In this document: piece by piece, positions 9,178-59,839 of the stretch
Position numbering within the stretch: the first letter of the stretch is position 1
How the letters are laid out: every line of letters begins with the position of its first letter
Source of the DNA: Acidobacteriota bacterium
GTDB lineage: Bacteria; Acidobacteriota; UBA890; WLXD01
Length of the DNA stretch: 64,000 bases
Assembly (NCBI GenBank): GCA_963666055.2
Contig: CAXWPH010000002.1
Span: forward strand, 224,001 to 288,000
Reading direction: 5' to 3'
Notes under the pieces: model-generated
The model's database searches: none
What the model saw: only the letters and a program-made list of their open reading frames with translations
What the model was told of the DNA's origin: nothing
Made by a program: the position numbers and the translations under genes

Positions 9178-9181
<4 letters not shown>

Positions 9182-9320
9182 CACGGCCTGCTAGCAGGGT
9201 GCTGAAGAGCTCTGGTGGGTCACGTGCGTGGGTCTTGCTGGCGAGATCAAGAAAGAGCGGCGGCGCCGTGCCTTCACGGCGTGGGCTCGAGCCTGCCACC
9301 CTACACCCGACCCCACGGCT
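9178..9320. repeat. Remnant plus diverged relative of the CTAG-element family
   Basis: CTAG-CACGGCCTG-CTAG at the M32 stop, then CAGGGTGCTGAAGAGCTCTGGTGGGTC (TIR-like) and hairpin CGCCGTG-CCTT-CACGGCG. Right boundary approximate. Confidence 0.6.
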
Positions 9321-9381: not shown

Positions 9382-11526
9382 ATGCATCGCCGCGCGCTCA
9401 CGCTGTTGACCCTCATCCTCAGCCTGGGGGTGATCCTTGGTCCGACATCGAGTATGGCTCAGGAGGCGGCATCCGCAGAAGCGGAGCCTGGCCGTCTGGC
9501 TGCCGAAGACACCCTACGAATCAGCAATGTCGGCAACCCGCGCTTCTCGCCGGACGGTGAGTGGGTGCTATACACCGTGGCGGCGCGCGATATGGATGAC
9601 GACGAGCTGTCGCGCTATACACACCTGTATCGCGTACGTGTGGATGGCACCGGCGGGCGGCAACTGACCCGGGGAGACAGCTCCGCCAGCTCGCCGCAGT
9701 GGTTTCCGTCGGGCGACAAGTTCGCCTTCCTTCGCGAGGTCGACGACGCCAGTCAGGTATATGCCATGCACACCGATGGTGGTGAGGCCTGGCAGGTGAC
9801 AGATTCCGAGGAAGGGGCGGGCACCTACGGGATCTCTCCGGACGGCGGCAAGATCTGGTTTGTGGCGCGTAACCCCGAGACCGCCGAGCAGAAGCGGCGC
9901 GCCGAGCAGCACGACGATGCCGTCGTCGTCGATGCCGAGTTCCGCTTCAGCCACCTCTGGGTGCACGATATGGAGGCGGGTGAGTCGACGCGGCTGACGG
10001 AGGGCGACTTTACGGTTAGCGACCCGCGTTGGTCGCCTGATTCCAGCCGTATCGCCTTCGTTACGCGGCCGACGACCAAGGTGAACGACGGCTGGAACAG
10101 CGACATCCGCGTCGCCGATGTTGCCTCGGGCGAGTCTCGTGTGCTGTTCGAGAACCCCGGCCCCGACAGCTCGCCGCGCTGGTCTCCGGACGGCGACAAG
10201 ATCGCCTTCACGGCCAACACCCACACCGGAACAACGGTCTGGCACAGCAAGCTCTACCTGTTGCCGGCAGATGGCGGCGGCGAACCCGAGATCTTGCTCG
10301 AGGACTTCGACTTGAACGCCGGCCCGCCGATTTGGGCTCCCAACGGCGTCGATATCTACTGGGCCACCGGTGAGCGTACCAACGTGGCGCTTTACTCGGT
10401 GCAGGTAGCTACCGACGAAGTTCTGCGGCACGGTGTGCCCTCGGGCGCCAACTTCCAGTTCCAGCTGTCGCCCGATGGCGGCCGCTGGGTATGGGTGCAC
10501 TCCAACCCGACGCATCCATCGGAGCTCTACACCGCGCCGTCGAACGATCTGTCGCAGCTCACGCGTCTCACCACCCACAATGCCTGGCTGGCCGAGTCGT
10601 TCGAGCTCGCCGCCGCCCGCCCCATCACCTGGACCAACTCCGACGGTCAGGAGATCGAGGGCGTGGTGCACTTTCCGATCGGGTATCGGGAGGGGACGGC
10701 GTACCCGCTTATCGTCCACCCGCACGGTGGTCCCAGCGGCGCGGTGACGACGTCGTTCAACTCCACCAACCAGATGCTCGCCGCCAACGGCTTCCTGGTG
10801 TTCCAGCCCAACTTCCGCGGCAGCTCCAACTACGGCCAGGAGTTCCTCAACGCCAACCGTGACAACTGGGGCACACGCGACTACGACGACATCATGACCG
10901 GGGTCGACGACCTCATCGCGCGCGGCTGGGCCGATGCGGATCGGATGGTCGCCTACGGATGGAGCTACGGTGGCTACATGACCTTCTGGATGTCCACCCA
11001 GACCGATCGATTCAAGCTGATCTCACCGGGTGCCGGGCTCACCAACTTGTACTCGATGTACAGCACGACCGACATTCCGGGATACATGGGGTGGTTCTTC
11101 GGCACGCCGTGGGACGACGAGGACGCGTACCGACGCCACTCGCCCATCCGCCACGTGAAAAACGTCACTGCCAAGATGTTGATCATGCACGGCGCCGACG
11201 ATGCCCGCGTGCCCCCGGGGCAGGCGGTGGAGTTCTATCAGGCGCTGCGCGATTTGGGTAAGGACGTGACGTATGTGTCGTACCCACGTCAGGGCCACGG
11301 TATCGCCGAGCCGCGACTGCAGGTGGACCGCCTGCGCCGCTACGTGTGTGCGTTCACCGACGCGGTGAGTATCGAGGCCACAACCGAGGAGTGTGACGAT
11401 GGCGTCCCGGCGATAGTGGCCGACGACGAGGAGGAGAGCGCAGAAACGGCGGCGGCGTCAGGTCGCGCTCCAAACGCCAGCGAGCTCGACACCGGCGTCT
11501 ATCGGGTGATTCAGTTCCACCGCTAG
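9382..11526 (+). CDS. S9 family peptidase (acylaminoacyl/dipeptidyl peptidase) with beta-propeller
   Basis: Signal peptide, repeated PRWSPDG units, HGGP, GWSYGG nucleophile, HGADDARV, QGH. Confidence 0.95.
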   Translation: MHRRALTLLTLILSLGVILGPTSSMAQEAASAEAEPGRLAAEDTLRISNVGNPRFSPDGEWVLYTVAARDMDDDELSRYTHLYRVRVDGTGGRQLTRGDSSASSPQWFPSGDKFAFLREVDDASQVYAMHTDGGEAWQVTDSEEGAGTYGISPDGGKIWFVARNPETAEQKRRAEQHDDAVVVDAEFRFSHLWVHDMEAGESTRLTEGDFTVSDPRWSPDSSRIAFVTRPTTKVNDGWNSDIRVADVASGESRVLFENPGPDSSPRWSPDGDKIAFTANTHTGTTVWHSKLYLLPADGGGEPEILLEDFDLNAGPPIWAPNGVDIYWATGERTNVALYSVQVATDEVLRHGVPSGANFQFQLSPDGGRWVWVHSNPTHPSELYTAPSNDLSQLTRLTTHNAWLAESFELAAARPITWTNSDGQEIEGVVHFPIGYREGTAYPLIVHPHGGPSGAVTTSFNSTNQMLAANGFLVFQPNFRGSSNYGQEFLNANRDNWGTRDYDDIMTGVDDLIARGWADADRMVAYGWSYGGYMTFWMSTQTDRFKLISPGAGLTNLYSMYSTTDIPGYMGWFFGTPWDDEDAYRRHSPIRHVKNVTAKMLIMHGADDARVPPGQAVEFYQALRDLGKDVTYVSYPRQGHGIAEPRLQVDRLRRYVCAFTDAVSIEATTEECDDGVPAIVADDEEESAETAAASGRAPNASELDTGVYRVIQFHR

Positions 11527-11801
11527 CAGGCCGTGGTGAAAGTGTGGTGGGTCTGGCGACAGGGACTTGCGAAGTGGAGGCAAGGAGAGAGGAGAAGGCG
11601 ATGGATACCCCATCGTTGACGAGGAACGACGCAGCATACGCGCGCAACCCCCTGTCGCCCGAAGGGTTACGGCGATTTGGGGCCATTTGCAGCGTTGGCC
11701 TTCCTGGACGATGGCTAGGGCATCGCCTGTGTCAGGCCGCCTTGCATCTGGCCCCAACTCGCCGTAACCAGTCCCACCACACTTTCACCACGGCCTGCTA
11801 G
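11523..11801 (+). mobile_element. 279-bp MITE-like element, copy 1
   Basis: Ends CTAGCAGGCCGTGGTGAAAGTGTGGTGGGTCTGG ... CCAGTCCCACCACACTTTCACCACGGCCTGCTAG; near-identical to 42434-42711 and 51835-52113; the left CTAG contains the S9 stop. Confidence 0.9.
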
Positions 11802-17682: not shown

Positions 17683-17731
17683 GGTGGTGCGGCGGAGGAT
17701 CGATTGGGTCTGGCCCGCCACACTCCCACCA

Positions 17732-18409
17732 CTAGGGCGCGGATGCAGCGTATCGCTGCTCGTACCGTGCCACGGTGACCTCGCGATCCGGCAGCGTATC
17801 CCGGATTGCCTCGGTCTCGACGGTGCGTTGCAGCCAGGCACGAAGGTCGGGCCGCTTGTCGACCAGCTCGGCCAGACTGGTGAGCTGGCGTAACCAGTCC
17901 ATGCGCGCCCAGTGCGGCGCGCAATGAAACGCCAGCAACGTGTGGACGCGCCCCTCGTCGGCGTCGACTGTGATCGCCAGCTGATCGAGCTCGCGCCCGA
18001 TATGGTCACGACGCTCGGGGTCGACCATCCCACCCGCCCGCATCGATTCGTAGAAGGTCTCGACGACGATCTCGTCCCATTGCTTCATCGCCAGTCGTTG
18101 GCGGGCGCGAAGCCGTGGGTCGGATGCAAGGACGCCTGTCCACCCGCGTGTCTCGGCCAGGTACTCGTTGATCACCTGCGACTCGTACAGCGTGAAGTCG
18201 TCGTCGACCAGCAGGGGCACGCGGCCGGTCGGGCTCAGAGCAAGGAACTCGGGGTCACGATTACGCAGATCGATCTCGTGCAGCTCGAAGGGGATATCGA
18301 GGTGGTCCAGCAGAGCGCGAGTACGCTGTGCGAACGGGCACACCTGAGCGCTGTAGAGCTTCAACGGGGCGCCTCCGGGTGTGCCGTGCTGAGGTTGCCG
18401 GACCGGCAC
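17732..18409 (-). CDS. Glutathione S-transferase family protein
   Basis: KLYSAQVCPFAQR, SPTGRVPLL, LYESQVINEYL. Confidence 0.92.
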   Translation of the reverse strand: MPVRQPQHGTPGGAPLKLYSAQVCPFAQRTRALLDHLDIPFELHEIDLRNRDPEFLALSPTGRVPLLVDDDFTLYESQVINEYLAETRGWTGVLASDPRLRARQRLAMKQWDEIVVETFYESMRAGGMVDPERRDHIGRELDQLAITVDADEGRVHTLLAFHCAPHWARMDWLRQLTSLAELVDKRPDLRAWLQRTVETEAIRDTLPDREVTVARYEQRYAASAP

Positions 18410-26159: not shown

Positions 26160-26681
26160 ATGATTTCCCGTCCACAAGCGAAGCGCAGGGTGCTACTCGG
26201 TGCCCTGCCGCTGCTGCTGATCTTGGCCGGATGGGCTTGGTCAGCGCCGTCAGGCGAGCAATCGTCGGTGGTGTACGTGCTACGTCACGCCGAGCGCGCC
26301 GATGCCGCGCAGCCCGAGCGCGACCCGCATCTCAGCGCTGCCGGTCATGCTCGCGCCGAACAGCTGGCCGATCTCCTGGTCGCGGAGCACATCGCCACCG
26401 TCTTCAGCTCTGACTATCACCGCACCCGCGAAACGGCTCGACCGCTGGCGAGTCGCCTCGGCTTGTCGGTGCAAACTTACGATCCGAGCGCCCTGGCCGA
26501 GCTCGCCGCCGAGCTCCGCGAGCTGCCCGGGCGACATGTCGTCGTCGGCCACAGCAACACGACACCGCAGCTGGTTGAGCTGCTGGGCGGCGATCCAGGC
26601 GAGCCGATCGATGATGCGGTGGAGTTCGATCGCCTCTACGTCGTTGTCCGGGACGCCGATCGAGTCACCACGGCCTGCTAG
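26160..26681 (+). CDS. Histidine phosphatase (PGM/SixA-like), exported
   Basis: RHAE, SSDYHRTRETA, VVGHSNT; the last codons (TTAC*) come from an element remnant. Confidence 0.88.
   Translation: MISRPQAKRRVLLGALPLLLILAGWAWSAPSGEQSSVVYVLRHAERADAAQPERDPHLSAAGHARAEQLADLLVAEHIATVFSSDYHRTRETARPLASRLGLSVQTYDPSALAELAAELRELPGRHVVVGHSNTTPQLVELLGGDPGEPIDDAVEFDRLYVVVRDADRVTTAC
26665..26681. repeat. Solo TIR remnant
   Basis: TCACCACGGCCTGCTAG, an exact 17-nt element end; its CTAG is the stop for both convergent genes. Confidence 0.75.
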
Positions 26682-28085: not shown

Positions 28086-28112
28086 CCCCACACTTCCACC
28101 ACGGCCTGCTAG
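28086..28112. repeat. Solo TIR remnant
   Basis: CCCCACACTTCCACCACGGCCTGCTAG. Confidence 0.8.
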
Positions 28113-33414: not shown

Positions 33415-33454
33415 TTGCAGTCCACCGAGCGCTGCGGCCTGCTAGGCGCCAGGT

Positions 33455-42059: not shown

Positions 42060-42437
42060 ATGAAGGTGAAACGACAGCGTGATCGTTCTAGTGGAGCCCG
42101 GTCTCCGGTTTCGCCTCGGCTGATCGAGGGTGGCATCGATGCTGCCGTGCCCCTCGACCGGACGATTCATCAGCCCGTGCGCCTGGCGATCATCAGCTCG
42201 TTGGCGGTGAACGACGCGCTGAGCTTCAACGAGCTCAAGCAGCTGCTCGAGTTGACAGATGGCAACCTGAGCGTGCACGCGCGCAAGCTCGAGGACGCCG
42301 GGTACGTTGCTTGCGACAAGAAGTTCGTCGGGCGTATGCCACGTACGCAGTACCGACTGACCGGCTCGGGGCGCCACGCGCTCGAGCGCTATCTGGAGCA
42401 CATGGAGGCGCTTATCGCTGCCGTGCGGCAGTCGTAG
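42060..42437 (+). CDS. Winged-helix transcriptional regulator (HTH_34 type)
   Basis: IHQPVRLAI, TDGNLSVHARKLE, PRTQYRLT. Confidence 0.92.
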   Translation: MKVKRQRDRSSGARSPVSPRLIEGGIDAAVPLDRTIHQPVRLAIISSLAVNDALSFNELKQLLELTDGNLSVHARKLEDAGYVACDKKFVGRMPRTQYRLTGSGRHALERYLEHMEALIAAVRQS

Positions 42438-42711
42438 CAGGCCGTGGTGAAAGTGTGGTGGGTCTGGCGACAGGGTCTTGCGAGGTGGAGGCAAGGAGAG
42501 AGAGGAGGCGATGGTTACCCCATCGTTGAGGAGGAACGACGCAGCATGCGCGCGCAACCCCCTGTCGCCCAAAGGGTTACGGCGATTTGGGGCCATCTGC
42601 AGCGTTGGCCTTCCTCGACGATGGCCGGGGCATCGCCTGTGTCAGGCCGCCTTGCATCTGGCCCCAACTCGCCGTAACCAGACCCACCACACTTTCACCA
42701 CGGCCTGCTAG
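42434..42711 (+). mobile_element. MITE-like element, copy 2 (278 bp)
   Basis: Same TIRs and body as copy 1 with roughly a dozen differences; begins at the regulator's TAG (GTAG context). Confidence 0.9.
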
Positions 42712-42744
42712 CAGGCCCACCTCACTTCCACCCCGGCCTGCCAG
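42708..42744. repeat. Collapsed mini-element adjoining copy 2
   Basis: CTAGCAGGCC-CACCTCACTTCCACCCCGGCCTGCCAG: both TIR ends fused and diverged. Confidence 0.65.
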
Positions 42745-51834: not shown

Positions 51835-52113
51835 CTAGCAGGCCGTGGTGAAAGTGTGGTGGGTCTGGTTACGGCGAGTTGGGGCCAGATGCAAGGCAGC
51901 CTGACACAGGCGATGCCCTAGCCATCGTCGAGGAAGGCCAACGCTGCAAATGGCCCCAAATCGCCGTAACCCCCCGGGCGACAGGGGGTTGCGCGCGTAT
52001 GCTGCGTCGTTCCTCGTCAACGATGGGGTAACCATCGCCTCCTCCTCTCTCCTTGCCTCCACTTCGCAAGACCCTGTCGCCAGACCCACCCCACTTTCAC
52101 CACGGCCTGCTAG
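51835..52113 (-). mobile_element. MITE-like element, copy 3 (279 bp, inverted)
   Basis: Reverse complement of copies 1 and 2; CTAG at both ends; intergenic. Confidence 0.9.
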
Positions 52114-53171: not shown

Positions 53172-53180
53172 GGCGGCCTG

Positions 53181-53780
53181 CTAGTCGATTGCGGCTCCGT
53201 CGAGCAGTCGATCGATGAGGACTCGGAGCTCCTCGTGCTTGGTCGGGACGGCACCGATCCAACGCTTGCGGACTTGCCATTCCGAATCGATTAGCAGCGT
53301 CGTTGGGAGTCCCCATAGCGGGCCGAACCGCTCTTCGAACTCGGCCGTACCCATGACTACCGGGTAGTCGACGCGGAAGCGGTCGCTGCTTACGAATTGC
53401 TCCACGGTGGGCGCGCTGCCAGACTGCACGGCAACGCCTATCACCTCGACGTTGCGGGCACGGTACTCGTTGTAGAGCTTGTTGTAGCGTGGTATCTCGG
53501 TCAGGCAGGGTCCACACCAGGTGGCCCAGACGTCGAGAACGACTACTCGGCCCCGGAGGCTCGACGAGCGTATCGGGGTTCCGTCCAAGCGCTCGAGCAC
53601 AAACGGTGCGGCGGGTGACGGCTCATTCAACACCGCCTCCGCGGCCGCAGCGACGGCCGGATCCCCACCATACCCGGTGATTGCCAGCGACCACGCCACC
53701 AGGGCGACGGTTCCGGCGACGGCTACCGAGGAAACGAGGTTCGGTCGAGGCATGGGCACCAGCGGCGAGAAAAACGGCAT
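53181..53780 (-). CDS. TlpA-family disulfide reductase
   Basis: VVLDVWATWCGPC, GLPTTLLID; N-terminal TM; stop lies in a CGGCCTGCTAG remnant. Confidence 0.92.
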   Translation of the reverse strand: MPFFSPLVPMPRPNLVSSVAVAGTVALVAWSLAITGYGGDPAVAAAAEAVLNEPSPAAPFVLERLDGTPIRSSSLRGRVVVLDVWATWCGPCLTEIPRYNKLYNEYRARNVEVIGVAVQSGSAPTVEQFVSSDRFRVDYPVVMGTAEFEERFGPLWGLPTTLLIDSEWQVRKRWIGAVPTKHEELRVLIDRLLDGAAID

Positions 53781-54296: not shown

Positions 54297-54704
54297 ATGA
54301 TCCATCGCTTGGCGACGCGCGCCCCGAATACAGGGCTGCACGAGATCACCGCCGATGTGGAAGCCGCCGTACGCGCGGCAGGCATCTCCGAGGGAATATG
54401 TACTCTGTTCGTGCGCCACACCTCGGCGAGTCTGACGATCCAGGAGAACGCCGATCCTTCAGCCCGTCGCGATCTGGAGGCGTGGCTCGAGCGGCTCGTT
54501 CCCGAGGGCGATCCGCTCTACACGCATACGGCCGAGGGCGCCGACGACATGCCGGCGCACGTCAAGGCGGCGCTGACCGCCACCTCGCTGTCGATTCCCG
54601 TGCTCGGTGGACGTCTCGGTCTCGGTAGGTGGCAAGGAATCTATCTTTGGGAGCATCGACGACCGCCGCGGGAGCGCGAGATCCTGATCCACGTCGGCGA
54701 CTAG
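54297..54704 (+). CDS. yjbQ: YjbQ/UPF0047 family protein
   Basis: HTSASLTIQENADP, DDMPAHVK, LGRWQGIYLWEHR. Confidence 0.93.
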   Translation: MIHRLATRAPNTGLHEITADVEAAVRAAGISEGICTLFVRHTSASLTIQENADPSARRDLEAWLERLVPEGDPLYTHTAEGADDMPAHVKAALTATSLSIPVLGGRLGLGRWQGIYLWEHRRPPREREILIHVGD

Positions 54705-54741
54705 CAACCAGACCCACCACACCTTCACCACGGCCTGCTAG
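54701..54741. repeat. Internally deleted element forming the whole spacer between two convergent stops
   Basis: CTAGC-AACCAGACCCACCACACCTTCACCACGGCCTG-CTAG. Confidence 0.85.
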
Positions 54742-59762: not shown

Positions 59763-59839
59763 CTAGCAGGCCATGGTGGAAGTCTGTCGGGCCGTAGCCC
59801 TGTAGCCAGGTCCGCCACACTTCCACCACCGACTGCTTG
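59763..59839. repeat. Short diverged element with both TIRs
   Basis: CTAGCAGGCCATGGTGGAAGTCTGTCGGG ... CCGCCACACTTCCACCACCGACTGCTTG. Confidence 0.7.

Follow-up and report, generated by a model that had tools for sequence, protein, structure and literature searches.

At 11523..11801 of a 64,000-nucleotide (nt) stretch of Acidobacteriota DNA (contig CAXWPH010000002.1, positions 224,001 to 288,000; the whole stretch is hereafter referred to as the window), a 279-base repeated sequence starts on the CTAG that holds the TAG stop codon of a peptidase gene, and further copies and fragments of it lie at other sites in the window, many of them again at TAG stops. What kind of element is this, what moved it, and why does it lie so often directly behind a gene? 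[quoted passage not shown] Here we report a comparison of the source genome (G000; 5.73 Mb scanned, 95.7% complete) with four congeners (G001–G004) and with further genomes, which shows the family to be a genuine miniature transposon of Acidobacteriota, as yet unnamed. In the reading that we favour, at a probability of roughly 60%, a non-coding MITE inserts at CTAG sites; an IS1182-like insertion sequence (IS) of the DUF772/DDE kind with the same ends likely moved it in trans; insertions away from stops would be purged more often, so that copies likely pile up after TAG stops; and two inverted hairpin arms, with a predicted single-strand fold built on stacked G·A pairs, likely act in the host transcript, whereby new copies would be tolerated and spread. 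Of this, the copy number, empty sites, IS end identity, enrichment at stops and bias in orientation were each observed directly, as were arms that are conserved and covary and the occurrence of one core between different IS ends.

Copies, empty sites and target duplication

BLAST located 260 loci of the family in G000, comprising 93 full-length copies and about 170 remnants, in keeping with the proposed high copy number. The full-length copies include 89 with the ends seen in the window (type A) and 4 with type B ends; the other end types are labelled C, C2, D, E and F. A weight matrix of the terminal inverted repeat (TIR) retrieved 423 ends from G000 and none from 761,701 shuffled bases, and the element folds strongly (z = −13.65 as DNA and −12.70 as RNA), so the family does not occur by chance. 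Across 88 aligned type A copies, the median distance from the majority sequence is 9 differences in 279, and no two copies are identical, indicating that the bursts are past rather than ongoing. With G000 included, element matches were obtained in 22 of 41 genomes sampled, the core was found in 50 of 301 genomes of the phylum, and an arm model matched 21 of 26 genomes of the class; the arm is absent from the two genomes behind loci titled Actinomycetota.

The initial annotation had recognised no named family, and the window indeed yielded no Rfam match at gathering score, the best lower match being a plant microRNA hairpin (32.9 bits vs 168). Searches of plasmid and phage collections brought up nothing beyond short matches at chance level, and viral contigs gave no match to two core patterns. 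The literature searched, which included few subscription papers and part of the supplements (ISfinder lay outside the comparison), contains no description of the family, nor do the available parts of PMC11602168 and PMC2267715. The element has no conserved coding capacity and shares its ends with a partner IS (see below), in agreement with its proposed non-autonomous nature. A candidate small protein would start from a Shine–Dalgarno-like run and an ATG in arm 1 and extend over 66 codons as far as the TAG on the right, a frame that is open in 60 of 88 G000 copies. It was rejected, as most of 32 elements of other lineages have the frame broken or shifted.

The congener G002, of which a sample of 2.0 Mb (about a third of the genome) was compared, is 88–93% identical to G000 over the compared window stretch. 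Flanks could be aligned in G002 for 19 of the 93 G000 copies, two of these being nested copies that match the repeat itself; one copy is full-length in both genomes, one site (G000 C15:1658950) carries a clean single CTAG in G002, and at most others G002 has a collapsed remnant or a small deletion. Comparing in the other direction, G002 copies against G000, gave one further clean empty site among 10. Among 60 more copies from four relatives, 21 have flanks alignable in G000, 2 are shared and 2 correspond to distinct clean single-CTAG sites (L345 and L347). These empty CTAG sites in a congener prove insertion, and the empty alleles that the initial annotation had proposed to seek in relatives thus exist. 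The loci L345 and L353 (G002 C8:48413 and C9:3163436) have identical flanks and are probably one locus assembled twice.

The present/absent unit spans CTAG to CTAG, and the single-CTAG empty sites are compatible with duplication of either CTAG or TA. The outer base of the flank varies at 20 ends and the inner base at 4 (p = 0.0015, with 3 degraded ends and a locus present twice among those counted), and the 93 and 60 copies contain no non-CTAG pair that is mirrored. On these two grounds, TA rather than CTAG is probably the duplicated sequence. Full copies at G000 C3:137153 and C6:367201 are nested in the arm 2 loop CTAG of another copy, and some G000 copies stand in tandem on a shared terminal CTAG. 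Contigs from four runs end at the element and none joins across without it, an uninformative outcome.

Partner insertion sequences and the exchange of ends

Copy 1 carries its left CTAG and TIR at 11523..11556 (+ strand) and its right TIR and CTAG at 11768..11801 (+ strand), which match at 33 of 34 positions when the flanking CTAG is counted; the 34-bp TIRs described by the initial annotation, bounded by CTAG (GTAG to the left of copy 2), hold with the same proviso, since 34 bp includes the CTAG itself. A DUF772 search of the order, positive in 7 of 26 genomes, gave an IS with the same ends (L077:1241-2745; 1,505 bp, four identical copies) in the same-order genome G011. The MITE ends agree with those of L077 at 20/20 and 19/20 positions, and its left end is identical over 21 bases. 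The 472-residue L077 protein contains DUF772 (PF05598, E = 2.6e-19) and a weak, below-cut-off match to the DDE domain PF13751, and among six models it scores best against the IS1182 model NF033551, at 158.6 bits against a cut-off of 270; we therefore call L077 IS1182-like, without placing it as a member of the family. Relatives of the protein at about 50% identity reside on 13 plasmids, annotated as transposase or IS5 family; one that was inspected has related ends and CTAA and CTAG flanks. L077-type proteins occur in 16 of 301 genomes of the phylum. Mobilisation in trans by an L077-type transposase in past bursts is likely, judging from the shared ends. The L077 transposase gene lacks a stop of its own, the TAG being supplied by the right target flank.

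The CTAG target proposed by the initial annotation is borne out, as is a partner IS with the same end, which L077 provides; the partner is, however, a DUF772 IS1182-like element rather than the resident IS5. The latter was rejected as mover, having TTAA flanks and ends unrelated to those of the MITE. It is present in G000 in 8 near-identical copies with TTAA flanks (C2:350101 and seven others, L011–L018) and may be a recent arrival, as a family search gave no DUF772 match in the four congeners. The MITE shares end sequences and CTAG context with DUF772–DDE ISs of the IS1182 (NF033551) and IS5 (NF033581) families, but contains no transposase. Moreover, 13 IS loci hold no convincing arm, the body of L077 giving one 14-bit match (E = 0.08), and by this comparison the MITE interior is not derived from an IS body.

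The ends change around this interior. Type A ends match L077 (20/20), type B ends match IS5_4 elements that score above their cut-off (L070/L086; 19/20), type C ends match those of an IS (18/20) known from a fragment with a start resembling the L073 IS1182 protein, and type C2 ends match L073 itself (15/20), which lies above the IS1182 cut-off. Matches for type D (IS630-like, 11/20) and type F (IS427-like, 13/20) are weak and tentative, and type E ends match none of the ISs compared. Metagenome matches, which come without taxonomy, comprise 122 loci, 80 with flanks and 71 usable, and their 35 two-ended elements divide into 18 F, 11 C, 5 A and 1 unassigned. When 32 cores are placed in a tree, those with B and C ends fall together in one starred clade, at 83–91% identity. 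With end groups fixed from the end sequences ahead of tree building, approximately unbiased (AU) tests reject a one-clade origin for A, B and C (p = 0.003, 0.0001 and 0.001, respectively), values weakened by the non-independence of paired stem columns. By sequence, the same core is thus bounded by ends belonging to three IS classes or more.

How ends could be exchanged is suggested by the target: all of these ISs land on CTAG, and the MITE would regenerate CTAG at its own ends. Nesting followed by deletion and symmetrisation could install new ends (compare the rare TIR changes, 4 mirrored vs 61 unmirrored), which may have been taken from whichever CTAG-targeting IS was active. CTAG-flanked ISs are abundant in some genomes: G007 has 146 DUF772 matches in 5.1 Mb, reflecting a massive IS5_4-type expansion with CTAG flanks (for example L086:1243-2586 and L092), and IS630 expansions with CTAG flanks are found in G039 (63 matches; L297 and others) and G200 (16 matches; L298 and L312). 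At L301, an IS630 adjoins a type C core element.

The two-arm core and its predicted fold

The interior consists of two homologous arms inverted relative to each other. In copy 1, arm 1 (11570..11651) is a hairpin whose purine-rich form lies on the + strand, with four tandem G·A motifs predicted, and arm 2 (11673..11755), its inverted homologue, has the purine-rich form on the − strand. RNAalifold applied to 21 type A elements showed two-sided changes at 49 of 101 pairs. We aligned 54 arms with a detectable apex, from 29 of 32 elements; their register was picked between two options to maximise G·A pairs and so leans towards such pairs. The purine strand forms an apical CGATG/CATCG stem, followed by G·U in 38/54 arms; four loop positions carry G·A or A·G in 48–50/54; and the single pair between tandems is Watson–Crick in 51/54 (C-G in 36, G-C in 15). 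One doublet flips jointly, being Watson–Crick in 16/54 arms and tandem G·A in 16/54. The predicted fold thus contains three to five tandem G·A pairs, which we take to be of the sheared type, separated by covarying Watson–Crick pairs; judged by eye, the tandems are mostly symmetric 2×2 loops, a kink-turn being marked by a 3-nt bulge beside tandem G·A pairs. Arm 1 of 13 metagenome elements, found through the arm 2 pattern, repeats the register. Covariation of the named pairs (0.267 in a plain alignment of 38 arms) exceeds 500 of 500 shuffles and all slid controls, although relatedness inflates the value. Between the arms, the linker (11648-11664) is a small conserved palindrome, inverted in some lineages, whose one strand would read as a C-GAA-G loop and whose opposite strand would read as a loop of the UUCG type.

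Once inserted, copies seem to decay neutrally. In 88 copies, private substitutions run at 0.61% per site for G·A positions, 0.83% for arm pairs and 0.97% for the TIR, an even range of 0.6–1.3% across classes, and arms are often deleted at their bases with heterogeneous breakpoints: among 31 two-ended short forms, 17 keep arm 1 only and 5 keep arm 2 only. From even substitution and frequent arm deletion together, the conservation of the arms most likely stems from which copies multiply or persist, rather than from host use of individual copies. Concerning the role of the fold, we would put RNA a little short of even odds, single-stranded DNA (ssDNA) near one chance in three, and no role at all near one in five.

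The last of these options corresponds to an explanation in which the core is functionless inherited filler, its stems kept by hairpin-templated repair and its ends swapped through chance nesting of CTAG-targeting ISs. The mirrored TIR changes indicate that some symmetric change happens, recent mutations show no excess of G·T over A·C, and the arms are readily deleted, all in its favour. Templated repair should nevertheless erase mismatches, yet G·A persists in about 90% of arms across cores that are only 57–80% alike, and neighbouring pairs flip, including the doublet that switches jointly; we consider this explanation unlikely.

A possible but doubtful alternative is that the arms act as folded ssDNA, at the replication fork or in transposition (as a host-factor site or in end pairing), such that only copies with intact arms make progeny. 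The even decay of inserted copies fits selection at such a copying step, the inverted arms provide one purine form per strand, and DNA accommodates tandem sheared G·A pairs stably. As DNA, the purine form has the higher stability in 47/54 arms, but by only about 1 kcal/mol, compared with about 5 kcal/mol in 49/54 arms as RNA, and the partner ISs transpose without arms. Bias with respect to replication also bears on this alternative and is given below with the orientation data.

The arms might also be recognition sites of a single-strand mover of the HUH/RAYT type, as in REPINs and PATEs, with the IS ends as passengers. REPINs, or REP doublets, consist of two imperfect, inverted, intergenic hairpins, and the present core is likewise an inverted doublet of strand-specific imperfect hairpins that is more constant than the ends. 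The MITE differs from them in being bounded by DDE-type TIRs and a target duplication: the mobile unit runs from CTAG to CTAG, its ends match DDE ISs at 18–20 of 20 positions, and the six strong arm matches in the window are all inside full copies. G000 contains no Y1/RAYT gene (0 matches to the Y1 transposase PF01797). We regard such a mover as very improbable.

A broader and tentative proposal, well below even odds, is that the true unit is a portable G·A-zipper module, an undescribed fold of RNA or ssDNA that is specific to one strand and recognised by a host factor. It would make insertions behind stop codons tolerable or copying efficient, and would outlive any one transposase by adopting the ends of passing CTAG-targeting ISs (IS1182-like, IS5, IS1182, perhaps IS427-like and IS630). 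Interiors of bacterial MITEs are usually seen as filler or simple stem-loops; here the interior is conserved and the transposase-specific ends change. If the arms are functional, they would indicate that non-autonomous elements draw on some host factor or RNA process without regard to their transposase, and would reveal a new repeated non-canonical helix; if they are idle, this is one more MITE family, chiefly of value for annotation (spurious short open reading frames, broken assemblies).

Stop codons, orientation and the sites in the window

In gene calls across G000 made with our own hexamer caller, TAG ends 1,653 of 4,573 genes (36%), and CTAG ends 699 of those. A gene's TAG stop is occupied by 45 of 91 non-nested G000 copies, as against 494 of 4,769 non-family CTAGs (10%; odds ratio 8.5) or 494 of 2,077 CTAGs outside coding sequence (24%; odds ratio 3.1, p = 3e-7). 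Where the gap measures 150 bp or less, 36/42 copies are at stops vs 302/513 CTAGs. Relatives, counted from the best-scoring listed copies rather than every copy, have 16/23 (G004), 3/7 (G003) and 3/4 (G011) at stops. The enrichment is read most economically as the outcome of a CTAG target and of the loss of insertions that hit genes, promoters or terminators, which together can explain much of it; we infer selection rather than stop recognition, and the stop-codon habit, although real, is probably a by-product.

Active targeting of translation stops by the transposase or a partner would be the direct alternative. The enrichment survives stricter nulls (17/24 vs 195/471 in convergent gaps, p = 0.0055, with an excess in tandem gaps too; 41/67 vs 383/901 in gaps up to 300 bp), and L077 itself draws its TAG from the target flank. 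Against it, 46 of 91 copies lie off stops, copies also enter CTAGs inside other copies, promoters, terminators and decayed family ends go unmarked in the null, and no mechanism ties a DDE enzyme to a reading frame; targeting is improbable. Insertion at stops, as the initial annotation put it, therefore stands as an enrichment over CTAGs and fails as recognition of stops as such, half of the full copies being elsewhere.

A family-like left end follows 209 of 1,653 TAG-ending genes but only 21 of 2,494 TGA-ending genes. Family DNA directly follows the stop of about 4% of G000 genes, which would represent a wide reshaping of transcript 3′ ends. This contrast and the orientation bias described below would suit a cis-regulatory RNA that the host has domesticated and keeps at particular genes. 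Few sites are shared at full length between congeners (1/19 and 2/21), however, showing turnover, and copies decay evenly and collapse, leaving that explanation largely excluded.

Copies lying between co-oriented genes in G000 present arm 1 first on the transcribed strand in 45 of 55 cases (45:10, p = 2e-6), whereas convergent sites show no bias relative to the stop gene (8:9). Three congeners pooled give 29:11 (p = 0.006), driven by G004 (13:2). For genes on the inferred lagging strand, the ratio is still 14:5 with transcription. The influences of transcription and replication on orientation are inseparable in these data.

Several observations weigh against the reading of a CTAG MITE moved by an IS1182-like IS, purged away from stops and acting in the transcript. 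With private substitutions so even, no host selection is visible on folds after insertion, and an RNA role is hard to square with this. In 61 of 93 copies, and in 20 of 24 at convergent sites (20:4), the inferred leading strand carries the element's + strand, as the ssDNA alternative would have it; divergent sites are opposite (5:9), and the leading strand was inferred from codon-position skew on a fragmented assembly. Replication of the orientation bias is uneven (14:9 in G002, 0:2 in G011), only 14/45 G002 copies are at stops by the same count of relatives, and the gene calls are those of our own hexamer caller. The L077 transposase, itself below the IS1182 cut-off, was not found in G000–G004, with no tblastn match anywhere in the G000 assembly (where a few TIR-to-TIR pairs of 0.3–4 kb, considered as hidden autonomous copies, were listed), so the family looks orphaned there. 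In addition to the weakened AU tests, there are two sites where the filled allele has some other outer base but the second genome carries C, and later mutation could mimic a TA duplication.

Among known elements, MITEPye1 of Paracoccus yeei resembles the family in being non-coding and intergenic, with 18-bp TIRs like those of the IS1182-family ISPye18, short direct repeats and a long predicted RNA stem-loop (PMC11578231). By description rather than by sequence, it differs in having 1–3 copies per chromosome, versus about 93 here, and a 4-bp repeat, and the available part of its account is silent on stop codons and orientation, and on any core of two arms or swapping of ends (PMC11578231). MITEPsy1 of Pseudomonas syringae has a CTAG or YTAA target, shares its ends with the IS5-type ISPsy2 and is mobilised in trans; however, it is 100 nt long, has another TIR sequence and 6 copies, and its 4-nt duplication was shown by experiment, as far as the available text describes (PMC3189936). 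The bcr1 element of the Bacillus cereus group is likewise mobile, with a cruciform-like fold, two stem-loops kept by compensatory changes and non-conserved positions, but is about 155 bp long with 5-bp direct repeats and demonstrated transcription, and the available part of its description mentions neither a partner IS nor tandem G·A (PMC3184786). ERIC, RUP, Correia/NEMIS and CIR share TA at their termini, RUP borrowing its ends from IS630-Spn1, ERIC acting on upstream mRNA in an orientation-dependent manner and CIR having two arms and a linker (PMC2229807). They are shorter than 200 bp and mostly A+T-rich, and none is described, in the available part of that source, with one core under several IS ends (PMC2229807). 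By analogy, the element would work in the manner of MITEPye1, MITEPsy1, RUP and ERIC, and in its fold of two arms it is reminiscent of bcr1 and CIR. It is an ordinary kind of element with an unexplained portable module, and the strand-specific, end-changing core is its unusual part.

The three near-identical copies reported for the window are all present. Copy 1 (11523..11801, + strand) measures 271 bp if CTAG is duplicated and 273 bp if only TA is, and its left target copy is the stop of the S9 peptidase gene (9382..11526, + strand). Copy 2 (42434..42711, + strand; 95.3% identity) stands at the TAG stop of a winged-helix regulator, has GTAG as its left flank and shares its right CTAG with an older collapsed remnant (42708..42744). 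Copy 3 (51835..52113, − strand; 96.8% identity) is intergenic, after an AcrB-family gene and not at a stop. Each of the nine remnant positions listed by the initial annotation holds family sequence, those at 33435 and 53174 being 12-base ends only. If copy 2 and its neighbouring remnant are taken together, the window has 11 sites, and 7 of them touch a TAG stop (M32, S9, GST, phosphatase/CNNM, winged helix, TlpA-like and yjbQ/dipeptidase), as had been claimed, and Pfam matches for 17 of 17 window proteins tested support the gene names; the sites at 28086, 33435, 51835 and 59763 lie off stops.

The remnants at stops comprise a type A end at the M32 stop (9178..9194), next to the left part of a type B member with IS5_4-like ends (9191..9257, + strand); a degraded remnant at the stop of the GST gene on the − strand (17706..17735); a TIR remnant whose CTAG is the stop of both CNNM (− strand) and a phosphatase frame (+ strand) (26665..26681); a 12-base end at the stop of a TlpA-like redoxin on the − strand (53173..53184); and a collapsed remnant between the convergent stops of yjbQ (+ strand) and an M19 dipeptidase (− strand) (54701..54741). 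Those elsewhere are a TIR remnant upstream of CNNM (28086..28112), still shorter in G002; a 12-base end (33434..33445); and a two-ended 77-base remnant between divergent genes (59763..59839). That insertion leaves the coding sequence intact, as the initial annotation supposed, fits the S9 peptidase, whose orthologues end at TAG with the element absent, but does not extend to the predicted phosphatase frame (26190-26681), which ends within the TIR remnant and draws its last codons from it; G002 has a longer remnant at that place.

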